Assembly: GCF_054482595.1 (NCBI RefSeq)
Contig: NZ_CM137008.1
Direction: 5' to 3' (one strand)
Length of the DNA: 64,000 nt
Below the pieces are notes generated by a model. The model ran no database searches and was not told where the DNA came from. It saw only the letters and a list, made by a program, of their open reading frames with translations. This document shows, piece after piece, positions 1,598 through 35,991 of this stretch (positions within the stretch are counted from its first letter, which is position 1; each line of letters opens with the position of its first letter). Made by a program: the position numbers and the translations under genes.

Positions 1598-2614
1598 ATG
1601 TCCACATTACGCCTGCTCATCTCTGACTCTTACGACCCGTGGTTTAACCTGGCGGTGGAAGAGTGTATTTTTCGCCAAATGCCCGCCACGCAGCGCGTTC
1701 TGTTTCTCTGGCGCAATGCCGACACGGTAGTAATTGGTCGCGCGCAGAACCCGTGGAAAGAGTGTAATACCCGGCGGATGGAAGAAGATAACGTCCGCCT
1801 GGCGCGGCGCAGTAGCGGTGGCGGCGCGGTGTTCCACGATCTCGGCAATACCTGTTTTACCTTTATGGCTGGCAAGCCGGAGTACGATAAAACCATCTCC
1901 ACGTCGATTGTGCTCAATGCTCTGAACGCGCTCGGCGTCAGCGCCGAAGCGTCCGGACGTAACGATCTGGTGGTGAAAACCGCCGAAGGCGACCGCAAAG
2001 TCTCAGGATCGGCCTATCGCGAAACCAAAGATCGTGGCTTCCACCACGGCACCTTGCTGCTCAATGCCGACCTCAGCCGCCTGGCAAACTATCTCAATCC
2101 GGATAAAAAGAAACTGGCGGCGAAAGGCATTACCTCAGTGCGTTCCCGCGTGACCAACCTCACCGAGCTGTTGCCGGGGATCACCCATGAGCAGGTTTGC
2201 GAGGCCATAACCAAGGCCTTTTTCGCCCATTATGGCGAGCGTGTAGAAGCGGAAATCATCTCCCCAGACAAAACGCCAGACTTGCCAAACTTCGCCGAAA
2301 CCTTTGCCCGTCAGAGTAGCTGGGAATGGAACTTCGGTCAGGCTCCGGCATTCTCGCATCTGCTGGATGAACGCTTTACCTGGGGCGGCGTGGAACTGCA
2401 TTTCGACGTTGAAAAAGGCCATATCACCCGCGCCCAGGTGTTTACCGACAGCCTCAACCCCGCGCCGCTGGAAGCCCTCGCCGGACGACTCCAAGGCTGC
2501 CTGTACCGCGCAGATATGCTGCAACAGGAGTGCGAAGCGCTGTTGGTTGACTTCCCGGAACAGGAAAAAGAGCTACGGGAGTTATCGGCATGGATGGCTG
2601 GGGCGGTAAGGTAA
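1598..2614 (+). CDS. lplA: lipoate-protein ligase A
   Basis: 338-aa [28 protein letters not shown]..., recognised as LplA; SD-like GGAAA upstream. Confidence 0.95.
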
Positions 2615-2645
2615 CTCGCTGATTAAAATATCCAAGGAAGGAAAT

Positions 2646-2909
2646 ATGATCGATCTGGAAAACCAGGAACGGGAGATTATCAATTTAATGTTCAGCCAGC
2701 GTATTTCCTGGCTAGCCGCCGTGCGTATCAGGCATAAATTATCGCTTGCTGAAGTAAGTAAAATGTTAGGTATCTCGATTAATTCTCTAAAACAGATCGA
2801 AAAGACGGAACGGCTTAGCTCAAACATCAAAAGCAAAATGGCAGAAATTTATGGTTGTCCACCAGAGTTGCTGATATGCCCTTCCTGGATGACGGCTGAA
2901 CATAAATGA
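2646..2909 (+). CDS. small XRE-family helix-turn-helix protein (hypothetical)
   Basis: 87-aa ORF with strong SD (AAGGAAGGAA N5 ATG); HTH-like segment LSLAEVSKMLGISINSLKQIEK; AT-rich codon usage. Confidence 0.5.
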   Translation: MIDLENQEREIINLMFSQRISWLAAVRIRHKLSLAEVSKMLGISINSLKQIEKTERLSSNIKSKMAEIYGCPPELLICPSWMTAEHK

Positions 2910-2935
2910 ATAGATTCGTGAATAGATACTAAAAA

Positions 2936-2959
2936 GCCGGAGCAGTCCCCCACTCCGGC
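2936..2959 (-). terminator. rho-independent terminator downstream of deoD (hairpin also closes the convergent + strand ORF)
   Basis: GCCGGAG...CTCCGGC stem; on the minus strand it is followed by TTTTT. Confidence 0.7.
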
Positions 2960-2992
2960 TTAACACGACAATCGCCTTGCAGCGAAACACAA

Positions 2993-3712
2993 TTACTCTT
3001 TATCGCCCAGCAGAACGGATTCCAGTGCGATTTTGATCATGTCGTTGAAGGTGGTCTGACGCTCAGCGGCAGTGGTCTGCTCGTGAGTGCGGATGTGGTC
3101 AGACACGGTGCAGATGGTCAGGGCTTTCGCGCCAAATTCTGCAGCGACGCCGTAGATACCAGCCGCTTCCATTTCCACGCCGAGGATGCCGTATTTTTCC
3201 ATCACGTCGAACATTTCGCCGTCCGGAGAGTAGAACAGGTCAGCGGAGAACAGGTTACCCACGCGAGCATCAATGCCCAGTGCTTTAGCTGCATCTACTG
3301 CGTTACGCACCATGTCGAAGTCAGCGATAGCTGCGAAGTCATGGTCTTTAAAGCGGATACGGTTAACTTTGGAATCGGTGCAGGCACCCATACCAATCAC
3401 CACGTCACGCAGTTTTACGTGCGGCAGAACAGCGCCACAGGAACCAACGCGGATAATTTTCTTCACGCCGAAATCGGTGATCAGTTCTTTGGTGTAGATG
3501 GAGCAGGACGGGATACCCATACCGTGACCCATTACGGAAATTTTGCGGCCTTTGTAAGTACCAGTGAAGCCCAGCATACCGCGTACGTTGTTCACTTCAC
3601 GGGCATCTTCAAGGAAAGTTTCAGCAATATACTTCGCACGCAGCGGGTCGCCTGGCATCAAAACTACGTCAGCGAAATCGCCCATTTCTGCATTAATGTG
3701 TGGGGTAGCCAT
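2993..3712 (-). CDS. deoD: purine nucleoside phosphorylase DeoD
   Basis: [34 protein letters not shown]...; true start is the internal ATG at 3712 (239 aa) with AAGGA SD; track ORF is N-extended. Confidence 0.95.
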
Positions 3713-5043: not shown

Positions 5044-6366
5044 TTATTCGCTGATACGGCGATAGACAGTTGGTGTGCTTTCCGGTGCTTTATCGGCAAG
5101 TTTAATTGCCGCTTTCACCGCTTTCGCCGCTTCCTGCCAGCTGTTTTCGTCTTTCGCGTGGATAACCGCCAGCGGACGCTGACCGTCTACCTGGTCGCCC
5201 AGACGTGCCATATCAGTAAAGCCGACGCTGTAATCGATGGTGTCAGATGCCTGACGGCGTCCGCCGCCCATTGCAACCACTGCCATCCCCAGCGCGCGGG
5301 TATCCATTTCACTGACAAAACCTTCGGTATCAGCATAGACTGCTTTCGTCAGCATCGCTGTCGGCAGATACTTCGCGTAGTTCTCAACGAAGTCGGTCGG
5401 GCCTTTTTGTGCCGCTACCATACGACCAAAGACTTCTGCCGCTTTACCGTTGTCCAGCACCGCCTGCAATTTCGCGCGCGCTTCGGCGTCATCTTTCGCC
5501 AGTTTGCCGGAGATCAGCATCTCCACACACAGCGCCATCGTGACATCAAACAGACGCGGGTTACGATATTCACCCGTCAGGAACTGCACCGCTTCACGAA
5601 CTTCAACCGCGTTACCTGCACTGGAGGCCAGTACCTGATTCATGTCGGTGAGCAGCGCGGTGGTGCGCACGCCAGCGCCGTTAGCCACGCCAACAATCGC
5701 TTCGGCAAGGGCTTCAGAGAGTTCGTAGGTCGGCATAAACGCGCCGCTACCCACTTTCACGTCCATCACCAGCGCGTCCAGACCTTCCGCCAGTTTCTTC
5801 GCCAGGATCGAGGCAGTGATCAGCGGGATGGAGTCCACGGTTGCGGTAATATCGCGGGTCGCGTAGAAACGTTTATCTGCCGGAGCCAGTGAGCTGGTCT
5901 GGCCAATAATCGCCACACCGACGTCTTTAATAATTTCGCGGAAACGGTTGTCATCCGGGAAAATGTCGAAGCCAGGGATGGATTCCAGTTTGTCGAGCGT
6001 ACCGCCAGTATGACCGAGGCCACGACCGGAGATCATCGGAATATAGCCGCCGCAGGCTGCGACCATCGGCCCCAACATCAGCGAAGTGACATCGCCGACG
6101 CCACCGGTGGAGTGTTTATCAACAATCGGTCCATTCAGATGCAGGCTTTTCCAGTCGAGAACGGTTCCTGAATCTCGCATCGCCATGGTCAGCGAGACAC
6201 GCTCAGGCATTGTCATATCGTGGAAGAAAATGGTCATCGCGAGGGCGGCAATCTGCCCTTCGGAGATAGTGTTGTCGCGAATACCGTTGATAAAGAAACG
6301 AATTTCTTCATCGCTCAGCGCATGACCATCACGTTTTTTACGAATAATTTCTTGTGCGAGAAACAA
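5044..6366 (-). CDS. deoA: thymidine phosphorylase DeoA
   Basis: 440-aa [34 protein letters not shown]... Confidence 0.95.
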
Positions 6367-31113: not shown

Positions 31114-32778
31114 TTAAAACGTTTCCCAGTTCTCCTCGCTATCTGCCACGACCATTTTACGCGGCGCAGCTGGCGTCACGGTTTTTACCACAGCCGATGT
31201 TTCACGCTGCTGTTGCTGCTGTTGCTGAATCCGGAACACTGCCACAGCTTCGGTCAGGCGACTGGCCTGCTCTTCCAGCGCGGCGGCGGCAGCGGCAGAC
31301 TCCTCCACCAGCGCAGCGTTCTGTTGAGTTACCCGGTCCATCTCAGCAACCGCTAAGCCAACCTGATCGATACCACGGCTCTGCTCATCAGAAGCAGAAG
31401 CAATTTCGCCCATAATGTCCGTCACGCGGGTCACGGCGCTGACAATCTCCGCCATTGTTTCCCCGGCGCTTTCGACCAGCGTAGAGCCAACATCCACTTT
31501 CCCCACCGAGTCTTCAATCAGGCTTTTAATTTCACGAGCCGCCTGGGCGCTGCGCTGGGCCAGATTACGCACTTCTCCCGCGACCACCGCAAAACCGCGC
31601 CCTTGCTCACCCGCACGCGCAGCCTCAACCGCCGCGTTCAAAGCCAGAATATTGGTCTGGAAGGCAATGCCGTCAATTACGCTGATAATATCGGCGATTT
31701 TCTGCGAACTGGTGGAGATATCGCGCATAGTCTGCACCACGTTATCTACCACTTTGCCGCCGCGTTGCGCCGTTTCAGAAGCACTTAACGCCAGATGGCT
31801 GGCCTGGCGCGCATTCTCGGCGTTCTGTTTCACCGTTGCGGTCAGTTGCTCCATGCTGGCTGCCGTCTCTTCCAGCGAAGCGGCCTGTTGCTCGGTGCGC
31901 GAAGAGAGATCGTTATTGCCGGTAGCGATTTCGCTGGCACCGCTATAGATGGCATTGGCCCCGTTGCGCACATCACCGACGGTACGCATCAGCTCTCCCT
32001 GCATATGGCGCAAACTCTCTGCCAGTTGCCCCATCTCATTAGAGCCATCCACCTCAATCGGTTTCACCAGATCGCCGCCTGCAATATGACGGATGCTGTC
32101 AATCAGGCGATTCATTGGCGCTACCAGCGAGGCTTTAATACCGAACCAGACGGCGAAGATGACCGCCAGTACGACGATCATCACGCCCACCAGAATCCAC
32201 ATCGCCTGGCTGTAGGAGGCATTGTTATCGCTGACGGCGATATCATAGAGCCGATCGTTTTGCTCCATGTAAGCCACATACTGCTTCTCGAAACCGTCTT
32301 GATATCCCTGGGTCGGCTGATCAAAGAACTCGTTGATTTTGCCTGCACCTAACAGTTGGATCAGCTCCGCCAGCGCATTGTGATAAATATCGTAATTACG
32401 TTTGATCTCTGCCGCTGCGGCGGTGCTCTGACGCGGGTCACGCGGCAACGCTTCGTAATCCGCCCAGTTTTTTTCCGCCTGTTTCAGCGAAATACTGGCA
32501 CTCTGCATCAGCTCAGCAACGGTTGAACCGCTACCAATATTATTCTGATCCATCATGTAGCGGATACCCGCGCGGTTGAGGGTGTTACGCGTCTGCAACA
32601 ACGCGACCCAGCTGCCATTCAGCGTGGATTGCTGCTGGCGAATGGTTTGTAAAACAGTGAAATTTTCTTTGTCATTCTTTAAGGCATTAAAGAACAGACC
32701 GCCTGATGTCAGTTGTAAAAGGCCAAAAACGGCCAAAACCAGCAGTAAGCTGGTCACGATCTTGATACGTTTTAACAT
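31114..32778 (-). CDS. tsr: methyl-accepting chemotaxis protein I (serine receptor)
   Basis: 554-aa [26 protein letters not shown]... ending ...NWETF (CheR-tethering pentapeptide); contains a 7-Gln tract. Confidence 0.95.
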
Positions 32779-33005
32779 GGTTTCTCTTTCCTGTGGACCG
32801 ATGCAAGATTTTCGGCCTGAAATGAGAAAACTTTATAGGTAGCGACTTGAAACTGGTTAATTTTACCTCACTTTTTTAATTTTTGTTCAAAAATACAATA
32901 ACCACTTATTGATACATTTTCTTTTCTTATTTTTTTCACACGAATTGTATCTATTTTGAACGAAATATTTTATAGAGTGTGGAATTTTAAGAAAGGACAT
33001 CTGAA

Positions 33006-33395
33006 ATGTTAAACCGTGACTTCGATCATCTCTCAACGCTATTACATCTCTTTTTTGAACGTGAGGATATTTGCCAAAAGCTTAATATTATTGACCAAAA
33101 CAATATCACCGGTTGGGAAGTGTGGTTCCAGGTAGAGTTTGCTAATATGCTCTGCTCAACAGACCATGAATGGTGGCGTGAACAAGCACTTTCCTGTGAT
33201 ATGCGCAAAAAACCTGAGCGCCCGACACTACGCACAGATTTCTTACTACGTAAAAAAGGCTGGGCACAAGATAGCTATATCACGCTTGAAATAAAACAAA
33301 ACAGAGACGCGACCAGTTGTGTTAAAAATATGATCGCAGACTTAGAAAAAAGCGCAAAAATAAAACGTTCCGAACTCGATTTACGCAGTTTCTGA
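33006..33395 (+). CDS. hypothetical protein (possible small PD-(D/E)xK-like fold)
   Basis: 129-aa ORF with SD AAAGGA 9 nt upstream, in an AT-rich stretch between tsr and btsT; D...LEIK acidic/Lys pattern. Confidence 0.4.
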   Translation: MLNRDFDHLSTLLHLFFEREDICQKLNIIDQNNITGWEVWFQVEFANMLCSTDHEWWREQALSCDMRKKPERPTLRTDFLLRKKGWAQDSYITLEIKQNRDATSCVKNMIADLEKSAKIKRSELDLRSF

Positions 33396-33656
33396 ACCTT
33401 GGGTATCACCCCTATGATAGACAGGGAAAGGCTGGACTCTCTCATCGATTGCTATTTAGATGAGAAATTTTATCTTACTAAATCTCGTAAAAAACACGTT
33501 TTACTTAAAGAAATAAATAACACACCATATTGCTATATTGTTATTTAATATTTATAGCATGAATATAATTTTTAAATGAGTTACACAACCGAGGGCTAAA
33601 AATCGCTTCGGTTGTGATCATCATCACATAAATAACCTTCATAAACCTTGCTCAAA

Positions 33657-33684
33657 ACCGCTCAACCGCAAAACTGACCGCTTA
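33657..33684 (+). promoter_or_regulatory. putative BtsR (LytTR) binding site, direct repeats upstream of btsT
   Basis: ACCGCTCA and ACCGCTTA direct repeats with 12-nt spacer, about 160-180 bp upstream of the btsT start. Confidence 0.45.
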
Positions 33685-33840
33685 CGTCCCTAAAATAACC
33701 ACTCAGTTATTTACCTTACTTTACGCGCGCGTAACTCTGGCAGCATCACTGCAGGATAGCGGTCAATTTACCTCCTCAAACGCAACGCAAACCTAGAACG
33801 GCTTCGGCCAACTATTAATCAATACATGCCAGGTTTTACT

Positions 33841-35991
33841 ATGGATACGAAAAAACTATTCAAGCACATACCCTGGGTGATTCTCGGAATCATCGGTGCA
33901 TTCTGCCTCGCGGTAGTTGCATTACGTCGGGGGGAGCACGTCAGTGCCCTGTGGATCGTGGTCGCCTCTGTGTCGGTGTATCTGGTGGCGTATCGCTACT
34001 ACAGTCTGTACATCGCCCAGAAGGTGATGAAACTCGACCCTACGCGCGCGACGCCTGCGGTTATTAACAACGACGGTCTGAACTACGTTCCGACCAACCG
34101 TTACGTGTTGTTTGGTCACCACTTCGCCGCTATCGCCGGTGCCGGTCCGCTGGTCGGTCCGGTTCTCGCCGCACAGATGGGCTACCTGCCTGGCACGCTG
34201 TGGCTGCTGGCGGGGGTAGTACTGGCCGGTGCGGTTCAGGACTTTATGGTGCTGTTTATCTCCTCTCGCCGTAACGGCGCATCTCTCGGTGAGATGATCA
34301 AAGAAGAGATGGGACCAGTACCGGGGACTATCGCGCTGTTTGGCTGTTTCTTAATCATGATCATCATCCTCGCCGTTCTGGCGCTGATTGTGGTTAAAGC
34401 CCTGGCCGAAAGTCCGTGGGGTGTCTTCACCGTTTGCTCAACCGTACCGATTGCGCTGTTTATGGGTATCTACATGCGCTTTATCCGTCCGGGGCGTGTG
34501 GGTGAAGTCTCTGTTATTGGTATCGTGCTGCTGGTTGCCTCTATCTACTTCGGTGGCGTGATTGCTCACGATCCGTACTGGGGTCCGGCACTGACCTTTA
34601 AAGACACCACCATTACCTTCGCGCTGATTGGCTATGCGTTTGTTTCCGCACTGCTGCCGGTGTGGCTGATCCTCGCACCGCGCGACTATCTGGCAACCTT
34701 CCTGAAAATCGGCGTTATCGTCGGCCTGGCGCTGGGTATCGTGGTGCTGAACCCGGAACTGAAAATGCCAGCGATGACCCAGTACATTGACGGTACTGGC
34801 CCGCTGTGGAAAGGCGCTCTGTTCCCGTTCCTGTTCATCACCATCGCCTGTGGTGCGGTATCTGGCTTCCACGCGCTGATCTCTTCCGGTACGACGCCGA
34901 AACTGCTGGCTAACGAAACCGACGCGCGTTTCATTGGCTACGGCGCAATGCTGATGGAGTCCTTCGTGGCGATTATGGCGCTGGTTGCTGCGTCCATCAT
35001 CGAACCGGGTCTTTACTTCGCGATGAACACCCCACCTGCTGGCCTTGGCATCACCATGCCTAACCTGCATGAAATGGGTGGCGAGAATGCGCCGATCATC
35101 ATGGCGCAGCTGAAAGACGTTACCGCACACGCGGCGGCGACCGTCAGCTCCTGGGGCTTCGTGATTTCGCCAGAGCAGATCCTGCAAACCGCGAAAGACA
35201 TTGGAGAGCCTTCTGTCCTGAACCGTGCAGGTGGTGCGCCGACGCTGGCGGTAGGTATCGCTCATGTGTTCCACAAAGTGCTGCCGATGGCTGACATGGG
35301 CTTCTGGTATCACTTCGGTATTCTGTTCGAAGCCCTGTTCATCCTGACCGCGCTGGATGCTGGTACCCGTTCTGGCCGCTTTATGCTGCAAGACCTGCTG
35401 GGTAACTTCATCCCGTTCCTGAAAAAAACCGACTCTCTGGTTGCCGGTATCATCGGTACTGCGGGCTGTGTGGGTCTGTGGGGCTACCTGCTGTATCAGG
35501 GCGTGGTCGATCCGCTGGGCGGCGTTAAGAGCTTGTGGCCGCTGTTCGGTATCTCCAACCAGATGCTGGCAGCCGTGGCGCTGGTACTGGGCACCGTTGT
35601 GCTGATTAAGATGAAGCGCACCCAATACATCTGGGTAACTGTTGTTCCGGCCGTATGGCTGCTTATCTGCACCACCTGGGCGCTGGGCCTGAAACTGTTC
35701 AGCACCAACCCGCAGATGGAAGGCTTCTTCTACATGGCAAGCCAGTACAAAGAGAAGATTGCTAACGGTACTGACCTGACGGCGCAGCAGATTGCCAACA
35801 TGAACCACATCGTTGTGAACAACTACACCAACGCGGGCCTGAGTATTCTGTTCCTGATTGTGGTGTACAGCATCATCTTCTACGGTTTCAAAACCTGGCT
35901 TGCGGTGCGTAACAGCGACAAACGTACTGACAAAGAAACACCGTACGTTCCAATCCCGGAAGGCGGCGTGAAGATCTCTTCGCACCACTAA
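33841..35991 (+). CDS. btsT: CstA-family pyruvate/H+ symporter BtsT (YjiY)
   Basis: MDTKKLFKHIPWVILGIIGAFCLAVVALRRGEH...; multi-TM; 716 aa from internal Met. Confidence 0.9.
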   Translation: MDTKKLFKHIPWVILGIIGAFCLAVVALRRGEHVSALWIVVASVSVYLVAYRYYSLYIAQKVMKLDPTRATPAVINNDGLNYVPTNRYVLFGHHFAAIAGAGPLVGPVLAAQMGYLPGTLWLLAGVVLAGAVQDFMVLFISSRRNGASLGEMIKEEMGPVPGTIALFGCFLIMIIILAVLALIVVKALAESPWGVFTVCSTVPIALFMGIYMRFIRPGRVGEVSVIGIVLLVASIYFGGVIAHDPYWGPALTFKDTTITFALIGYAFVSALLPVWLILAPRDYLATFLKIGVIVGLALGIVVLNPELKMPAMTQYIDGTGPLWKGALFPFLFITIACGAVSGFHALISSGTTPKLLANETDARFIGYGAMLMESFVAIMALVAASIIEPGLYFAMNTPPAGLGITMPNLHEMGGENAPIIMAQLKDVTAHAAATVSSWGFVISPEQILQTAKDIGEPSVLNRAGGAPTLAVGIAHVFHKVLPMADMGFWYHFGILFEALFILTALDAGTRSGRFMLQDLLGNFIPFLKKTDSLVAGIIGTAGCVGLWGYLLYQGVVDPLGGVKSLWPLFGISNQMLAAVALVLGTVVLIKMKRTQYIWVTVVPAVWLLICTTWALGLKLFSTNPQMEGFFYMASQYKEKIANGTDLTAQQIANMNHIVVNNYTNAGLSILFLIVVYSIIFYGFKTWLAVRNSDKRTDKETPYVPIPEGGVKISSHH

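Follow-up and report, generated by a model that had tools for sequence, protein, structure and literature searches.

The PD-(D/E)xK superfamily of nucleases is well known. Among its described members and related systems, those closest to the protein considered here are small type II restriction endonucleases, i.e. R.SwaI (5tgq), BglI (1dmu), OkrAI (3odh), BglII (1d2i), BstYI (1sdo) and BamHI (1bam), the nuclease domain of Wolbachia CinB (7esz_A), the TnsA-like N-terminal domain (PF08722) and the solitary type IV-like or single-gene nucleases represented in PADLOC. Here we compare these systems with a locus between tsr and btsT on an Escherichia coli chromosome, situated in a stretch of 64,000 nucleotides (contig NZ_CM137008.1 of RefSeq assembly GCF_054482595.1, hereafter the window), where a first-pass annotation had picked out an open reading frame (ORF) of 129 codons. 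The region is 100% identical to that of strain EC1515 (NZ_CP021844). We consider it likely that positions 33006-33548 are a nonsense-inactivated allele of a real accessory gene, known as ECs_5314 in E. coli O157:H7, and that the intact product of this gene is a solitary PD-(D/E)xK protein, presumably an endonuclease.

The small type II enzymes share only 8-11% sequence identity with ECs_5314, which differs from them by an extra N-terminal segment of two helices and by the lack of an adjacent or conserved methyltransferase. The identity to the CinB nuclease domain is 9%; CinB is a protein of 659 amino acids with two nuclease domains and an antidote, CinA, whereas the ECs_5314 gene has no partner. 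The TnsA-like N-terminal domain is the sole Pfam signal, it covers residues 56-108 (strands β1-β3 with D78 and E95-x-K97), and UniRef applies this label to the homolog of Pseudomonas fontis. However, the E-values of 0.02-0.13 are not significant, TnsB/C/D-type genes are not nearby and the C-terminal domain of TnsA is absent. What ECs_5314 has in common with the solitary type IV-like enzymes and the single-gene nuclease systems of PADLOC is the lack of a methyltransferase, a patchy distribution, a low G+C content (GC) and a tendency to decay, and some copies are found beside a retron reverse transcriptase, a SIR2 protein, an OLD-like ATPase or JukA/HsdR. It differs in that its only PADLOC match is a partial one to an orphan methyltransferase profile and in that it has no recognisable modified-base-sensing domain. 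The ECs_5314 proteins belong to no described family, and a literature search returned no paper mentioning the gene.

The intact gene is found at the same locus in O157:H7. It is 543 bp long and encodes 180 amino acids (WP_000934391.1 / NP_313341.1, ECs_5314 at 5449363-5449905 on the minus strand in strain Sakai, 'hypothetical protein'); the two loci also agree in orientation and in the protein accessions of the flanking tsr and btsT genes. The window allele is identical to the O157:H7 allele at 541 of 543 nucleotides. The two differences are a TGG->TGA change at codon 130 (W130*) and a GCG->ACG change at codon 93 (A93T), in other words the window carries a pseudogene allele with TGA at codon 130 and threonine at position 93. 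The stop is in frame and premature with respect to O157:H7 and to all 23 aligned homologs, and it removes 51 residues. Trp130 is invariant in the 23 close homologs and lies within the block R127-S128-x-W130-x-x-G133, in which G133 is likewise invariant; Ala93 is conserved in at least 90% of the close homologs. In EC1515 the identical copy is labelled as a pseudogene with an 'internal stop' by the Prokaryotic Genome Annotation Pipeline (PGAP).

A 61-mer centred on the TGA was found exactly in 25 of the 356 matching E. coli genomes and the other 331 differ from it; the position of the mismatch was read in the aligned O157:H7 allele, which has TGG at the centre, rather than across all 331. The carriers of the TGA allele (approximately 25 genomes) come from human, poultry and environmental sources. 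A separate inactivating event is seen in O55:H7 strain USDA5905 (locus 501-1030), where an independent deletion of 13 bp at gene positions 135-147 is annotated as 'frameshifted'.

As translated, the region 33006-33548 is a single frame of 180 codons with one in-frame TGA at 33393-33395. The 129-codon ORF starting with ATG was confirmed, including its good Shine-Dalgarno sequence, AAGGA, 8 nt before the start codon. A second short frame (33414-33548) had been described as lying in a different frame, which proved incorrect: its offset from 33006 is 408 nt, i.e. 3 x 136, so that it is in frame with the first ORF. The suggestion that the ORF may be the remains of a decayed larger gene was borne out by the intact form of 180 amino acids in O157:H7 and Citrobacter and by the PGAP label of the EC1515 copy. 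A frameshift as the cause of the decay was rejected, because the region reads as one continuous frame with one nonsense substitution, TGG->TGA. The ORF had also been regarded as an unannotated type of gene. It is not a new gene, since RefSeq already holds it as the hypothetical protein ECs_5314 / WP_000934391.1, and the proper label of the window copy is that of a pseudogene of this gene.

The structure of the intact protein was modelled with AlphaFold2 from an alignment of 23 sequences (mean predicted local distance difference test score, pLDDT, 85.9; predicted template modelling score, pTM, 0.84). The model has two N-terminal helices (residues 2-17 and 20-31), followed by the core and a small C-terminal alpha/beta unit. 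The core consists of α1 (38-50), β1 (54-64), β2 (74-83), β3 (91-98), α2 (102-116) and β4 (126-136), which is the alpha-beta-beta-beta-alpha-beta arrangement of the PD-(D/E)xK fold with a central mixed sheet. The catalytic signature is present as well, with E44 on α1, D78 on β2 and E95-x-K97 on β3, and the best structural matches of the model are restriction endonucleases. In the family alignment of 75 sequences E44, F16, D112 and G133 are invariant, and E38, W40, Q42, E59, D78, E95, K97, C105, M109, K115, R127 and I170 are conserved in at least 90% of the sequences. The first-pass annotation had pointed to the motifs RTDFLL and ITLEIKQ as a possible PD-(D/E)xK arrangement. Both motifs are present in the translation, and the guess is supported by the conservation of D78 and E95-x-K97 and by their placement on β2 and β3 of the model. 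The premature stop falls in the middle of the core strand β4, which means that part of the central sheet and the entire C-terminal subdomain are lost with the 51 residues. Judged by the model, the product of 129 amino acids is most likely unstable and inactive in this strain.

The gene was found in 362 of 5426 complete E. coli genomes (6.7%), always as a single copy and always on the chromosome. The carriers belong mostly to one clade, O157:H7/O55:H7, and essentially all genomes of this clade that were sampled have the gene. The first reading had noted the lack of an annotated K-12 gene between tsr and btsT, which is correct; K-12 moreover lacks the corresponding DNA segment and has a spacer of 377 bp. 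Homologs of about 180 amino acids occur in Citrobacter, Phytobacter, Serratia, Enterobacter, Cedecea, Pectobacterium, Xenorhabdus, Pseudomonas, Vibrio, Photobacterium, Acinetobacter, Neisseria and Actinobacillus, as well as in some Beta- and Campylobacterota. In a search of 1.84 billion representative sequences we found 322 clusters (50% identity) at E<=1e-3, and nearly all of these proteins are single-domain and about 175-195 amino acids long. Approximately 7-9 of 52 species copies appear truncated. The position between tsr and btsT is kept in Citrobacter braakii, C. portucalensis, two further Citrobacter genomes and Phytobacter. The amino acid identity between Citrobacter/Phytobacter and E. 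coli is 76-80% for the gene product, 83-86% for Tsr and 94-95% for BtsT.

The synonymous divergence (dS) between E. coli and Citrobacter was not computable by the Nei-Gojobori method, as the synonymous sites are saturated (proportion of synonymous differences, pS, 0.85-0.94), and comparisons within a genus or species were used instead. Within Citrobacter the ratio of nonsynonymous to synonymous divergence (dN/dS, omega) is approximately 0.03. Between the O157:H7 allele and that of E. coli 18KM2445, which is also intact, there are 47 synonymous and 8 non-synonymous changes, corresponding to a dN/dS of 0.028 at a dS of 0.68. There is strong purifying selection on the intact protein, which is clearly a functional one, and the 180-codon frame is kept across many genera, more than would be expected by chance.

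The two E. coli haplotypes differ along the locus in a characteristic way: the coding part is 83-95% identical, the 5' non-coding leader 59-74%, and the flanking tsr and btsT genes 98-99%. The divergence is confined to the cassette, i.e. the variable segment that carries the gene, and the coding part is better kept than the leader, which shows that the protein is selected and that the history of the cassette is either much deeper than that of its flanks or foreign. In the 18KM2445 cassette (locus 2272-3335, compared with window positions 32779-33840) the gene is 10% divergent and the leader 26-41%. Alleles of this type, at 80-90% identity, were seen in three E. coli genomes.

The K-12 spacer shares its first 58 bp on the tsr side and its last 168 bp on the btsT side with the window. 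A third state of the spacer is found in strain A39, in which the hpa (4-hydroxyphenylacetate) operon abuts the breakpoint on the btsT side. We thus see at least three states of this spacer in E. coli, i.e. the 136 bp of K-12, the 821-bp cassette in 362 genomes and the hpa operon, and the btsT-side breakpoint (approximately position 33656 of the window) is common to them. No terminal inverted repeats or target-site duplications were found at the 32837 and 33657 boundaries in a repeat search of 32700-33900, and an origin of the segment as a transposon or a miniature inverted-repeat transposable element was rejected on these grounds.

Potential partners of the gene were sought by an all-against-all BLASTP comparison of the ORFs within 6 kb at 52 loci. 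There was no conserved partner family beyond genus-level synteny in the 52 loci, and the clusters that seemed to be shared turned out to be LysR regulators, ABC ATPases, an antisense ORF and genus synteny (aconitase in Acinetobacter). An operon partner, an antitoxin or a methyltransferase was rejected because no neighbour family recurs. As a rule the gene is monocistronic, and considerable gaps separate it from both neighbours. No TnsB or TnsC families, as in a Tn7-like context, were present in the neighbourhoods inspected. The gene is flanked by tsr and btsT in E. coli and Citrobacter, which is not the layout of a type II restriction-modification system; methyltransferases of unrelated families at single loci were not systematically searched for.

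The surroundings vary between species. The Serratia copy lies in an island with integrases, with JukA and a type I HsdR 3-4 genes away; the Pectobacterium copy is in an island with MobA, AlpA and H-NS, and the Xenorhabdus copy adjoins a cI/Cro remnant and transposases. The copies of Photobacterium and P. fontis are among ordinary chromosomal genes. At 4 of 15 further loci that were sampled an immediate neighbour was PADLOC-positive, in a small sample that was partly picked by eye and has no genome-wide background. These positives are a retron-type reverse transcriptase (Marinospirillum), SIR2 (E 2e-105, a betaproteobacterium), an OLD/AriA-like ATPase (P. citronellolis) and a GajB-like helicase (Vibrio); the other neighbours scanned with PADLOC were negative. 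Next to the P. fontis homolog there is a divergently oriented upstream neighbour (5232-5774 of that locus), likewise of exactly 180 amino acids, which has no Pfam match and is outside the family cluster.

The picture that we propose is that the intact protein of 180 amino acids would be a stand-alone, Mg2+-dependent DNA endonuclease, probably a homodimer by likeness to the small type II enzymes. It would attack foreign DNA and so provide a restriction-like defence from a single gene, independent of any cognate methyltransferase; in the window strain translation stops inside β4 and the gene would be dead. Within the overall explanation, a solitary DNA endonuclease directed against foreign DNA is the most likely role, although we put it forward tentatively, somewhat short of an even chance. 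It is suggested by the low GC, the patchiness, the frequent decay, the constraint where the gene is intact, the lack of a methyltransferase and the occasional defence-island neighbours. Should the protein indeed be a solitary nuclease for defence or DNA targeting, it would add modestly to the accessory immune repertoire of E. coli and would be a lineage marker of the O157:H7 clade. A still broader proposal, which we regard as rather doubtful, is that the ECs_5314 proteins are an undescribed family of single-gene PD-(D/E)xK nucleases that require no methyltransferase and guard Proteobacteria against phages or plasmids. In that case the spacer between tsr and btsT would be an accessory hotspot with three states, whose cassette is exchanged by recombination in the flanks and is kept by strong purifying selection in some lineages, as in O157:H7, or lost by mutation in others, as in the window.

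Several observations weigh against the interpretation of the locus as a dead allele of a defence nuclease. The fragment of 129 amino acids retains all four catalytic residues, and its functional loss is read from the structure model alone. The loci with defence neighbours were first chosen by eye and only 4 of 15 were positive; moreover, in E. coli and Citrobacter the gene sits between housekeeping genes. No significant Pfam family was found: the TnsA-like_N domain (PF08722) reaches an i-Evalue of 0.11-0.13 for the E. coli protein, and across 23 members its best E-value is 0.021, none reaching 0.001. There was no match in NCBIfam, the PHROGs value was E 0.21, and a sequence search of the PDB with one protein and two profiles gave no match. 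The sole match in PADLOC (PADLOC-DB v2) is partial, to the orphan methyltransferase (oMTase) profile PDLC03734 with an E-value of 9.2e-4. No modified-base-reading domain is visible, though one would be expected of a type IV-like enzyme. Finally, PD-(D/E)xK folds serve also in repair, recombination and RNA processing. As for the PDLC03734 match itself, it aligns residues 108-173 (window 33327-33524) with positions 182-246 of the 444 in the profile, and some orphan methyltransferases may have a related nuclease-like module.

One alternative is a role of the intact protein as a cellular nuclease of DNA repair or recombination, sensing structures or lesions (Hjc/RecU, Vsr or NucS-like), in which case the window copy would still be a pseudogene. 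We consider this unlikely. The rarity of the gene in E. coli genomes, its restriction to few species and its frequent decay speak against it, and the low GC (38% as compared with 55% in the flanks) and the islands with integrases or relaxases in other hosts are traits of accessory genes. Moreover, resolvases and Vsr are outside the top structural matches.

Another alternative is an orphan type II endonuclease, the remnant of a restriction-modification system that has been lost, tolerated through host methylation (e.g. by Dam or Dcm) or silencing. The best solved-structure matches include SwaI, BglI and the OkrAI/BglII/BstYI/BamHI group, the length of 180 amino acids is close to the 194 of OkrAI, and the weak partial PADLOC match (E 9e-4) is to an 'orphan methyltransferase'. 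Nevertheless we find this explanation improbable, since the gene has no methyltransferase beside it in E. coli or Citrobacter, the 52 loci show no conserved partner, and a remnant would not be expected to show a dN/dS of approximately 0.03 in several genera. The family is also found in Pseudomonas, Acinetobacter and Neisseria, lineages that usually do not have Dam.

A slightly less probable explanation again is that the gene is a selfish, homing-type endonuclease cassette that cuts the empty K-12-type spacer, into which recombinational repair then copies it. It would account for a solitary, monocistronic and patchily distributed gene, for the sharp boundaries of the cassette between the σ28 promoter of tsr and the BtsR boxes of btsT, and for a divergence within the cassette (10% in the gene, 26-41% in the leader) that is far above the 1-2% of the flanks. 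The boundaries are, however, equally explained by selection that preserves the two promoters. There are no repeats or target duplications, and the loci in other genera are unrelated and have no recognisable common target. A selfish element would be expected to spread, yet only 6.7% of the E. coli genomes carry the gene, mostly in the O157:H7/O55:H7 clade, and the strong, long-lasting purifying selection points to an advantage for the host.

It is very unlikely that the locus is not a pseudogene at all, i.e. that the product of 129 amino acids is functional as a shortened protein or that the TGA is read through. The codons of E44, D78, E95 and K97, the Shine-Dalgarno sequence and the start codon are intact, the allele has persisted for some time as judged from its presence in approximately 25 genomes of varied source, and UniProt has an E. 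coli entry of 129 amino acids whose AlphaFold model superposes on the N-terminal part. Yet with the stop inside β4 the invariant W130 and G133 are lost, as are 51 residues which nearly all members retain at full length, a second substitution affects the conserved A93, and PGAP calls the copy a pseudogene. With respect to read-through, no known recoding element is among the Rfam matches, of which there are none at all. The last possibility, a chance non-coding frame in AT-rich intergenic DNA, would fit the base composition and the lack of a strong plus-strand consensus promoter in a simple scan, but it is refuted by the conservation of the 180 codons in 322 clusters, the dN/dS of approximately 0.03 and the confident fold with its catalytic motif.

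The coordinates of the gene and of the sites around it are collected in Table 1.

Table 1. Features of the tsr-btsT region, in window coordinates (strand '.', none assigned).
Feature	Position	Strand	Remarks
Reported 129-codon ORF, ATG to TGA	33006..33395	+	Encodes residues 1-129 of the 180-aa protein, with helices 1-3, β1-β3 and α2
Full extent of the pseudogene	33006..33548	+	Ortholog of O157:H7 ECs_5314; 2 nt of 543 differ
Premature stop TGA	33393..33395	+	TGG (Trp130) in O157:H7; inside core strand β4 (residues 126-136) of the model
Codon 93, ACG (Thr)	33282..33284	+	GCG (Ala) in O157:H7; two residues before the predicted catalytic Glu95
Rest of the frame: 50 sense codons and the original stop	33396..33548	+	Contains 33414-33548; encodes the remaining β4 and the C-terminal alpha/beta subdomain (G133, I170, T173 conserved)
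Shine-Dalgarno sequence AAGGA	32993..32997	+	8 nt 5' of the ATG; Citrobacter retains the block TTTTAAGAAA-GGA as well
Glu44 codon	33135..33137	+	Invariant acidic residue, helix α1, predicted metal ligand
Asp78 codon	33237..33239	+	'D' of PD-(D/E)xK, strand β2
Glu95-Ile96-Lys97 codons	33288..33296	+	'(D/E)xK', strand β3
Variable AT-rich segment carrying the gene	32837..33657	.	821 bp; 136 unrelated bp in K-12 and most E. coli
σ28-type promoter of tsr, TAAAGTTT-N11-GCCGAAAA	32809..32835	-	Read from the sequence; within the 58 bp common with K-12; left edge of the segment
CRP consensus TGTGA-N6-TCACA, perfect	33613..33628	.	65 bp past the stop of the gene; part of the btsT regulatory region
Three BtsR/YehT-type boxes: ACCGCTCA (33657-33664), ACCGCTTA (33677-33684), ACCACTCA (33698-33705)	33657..33705	+	Right edge of the segment

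The local gene order is lgoT (+), tsr (31114-32778, minus strand), the gap, btsT (+), yjiX and yjiA. The AT-rich gap of roughly 1 kb that had been noted between tsr and btsT measures 1047 bp to the btsT ATG at 33826, or 1062 bp to the PGAP start at 33841; its GC is 27-40% as compared with approximately 55-60% in the flanking tsr and btsT. The two btsT starts differ in the resulting protein, i.e. 721 amino acids for the mechanically called ORF from 33826 and 716 amino acids (MDTKK...) for the PGAP start. Neither a σ70-like promoter on the plus strand nor an intrinsic terminator was found in a consensus scan. No RNA family of Rfam matched 32700-33900 at E<=1, and a non-coding RNA was rejected as an explanation on this basis. 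Just 3' of the gene there is an inverted repeat, ACAACCGA (33585-33592) / TCGGTTGT (33608-33615), with a loop of 15 nt, which overlaps a CRP half-site. It has no T-run, was not called as a terminator in the scan and is not conserved in Citrobacter.

The accessory cassette is wedged exactly between two promoters, that of tsr and the CRP/BtsR region of btsT, and seems to disturb neither. The minus-strand element on the tsr side is taken to be a σ28 promoter by its agreement with the consensus. On the btsT side the CRP site reads TGTGA-TCATCA-TCACA and lies 29 nt 5' of CCGCTCA; the 136-bp spacer of K-12 has TGTGA-TATGAA-TCACA at the equal distance of 29 nt, and GTGATC..ATCACAT is retained in Citrobacter and Phytobacter. 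Expression of btsT is CRP-dependent (PMC7730263), and this site is probably what lies behind the reported dependence.

As had been stated earlier, the ORF lies apart from the regulatory region of btsT. A BtsR direct repeat had been placed at 33657-33684, and both of its boxes, ACCGCTCA and ACCGCTTA, are indeed present. Their spacer is 12 nt, and we assume the YehT/BtsR motif to be ACC[G/A]CT[C/T]A repeated after 13 bp, a pattern to which ACCGCTTA and ACCACTCA are the better fit. The first box, ACCGCTCA, is perfect in the window haplotype; K-12 reads GCCGCTCA there because the homology breakpoint is at the first base of this box. The oligonucleotide that served as the 'yjiY YehT binding site' (PMC4847170) contains all three boxes.

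The neighbouring Tsr protein has 554 amino acids in the window and in O157:H7, and the K-12 gene is 1656 bp long (551 amino acids). A run of seven glutamines near the C terminus of the window Tsr may be a length-variable tract.

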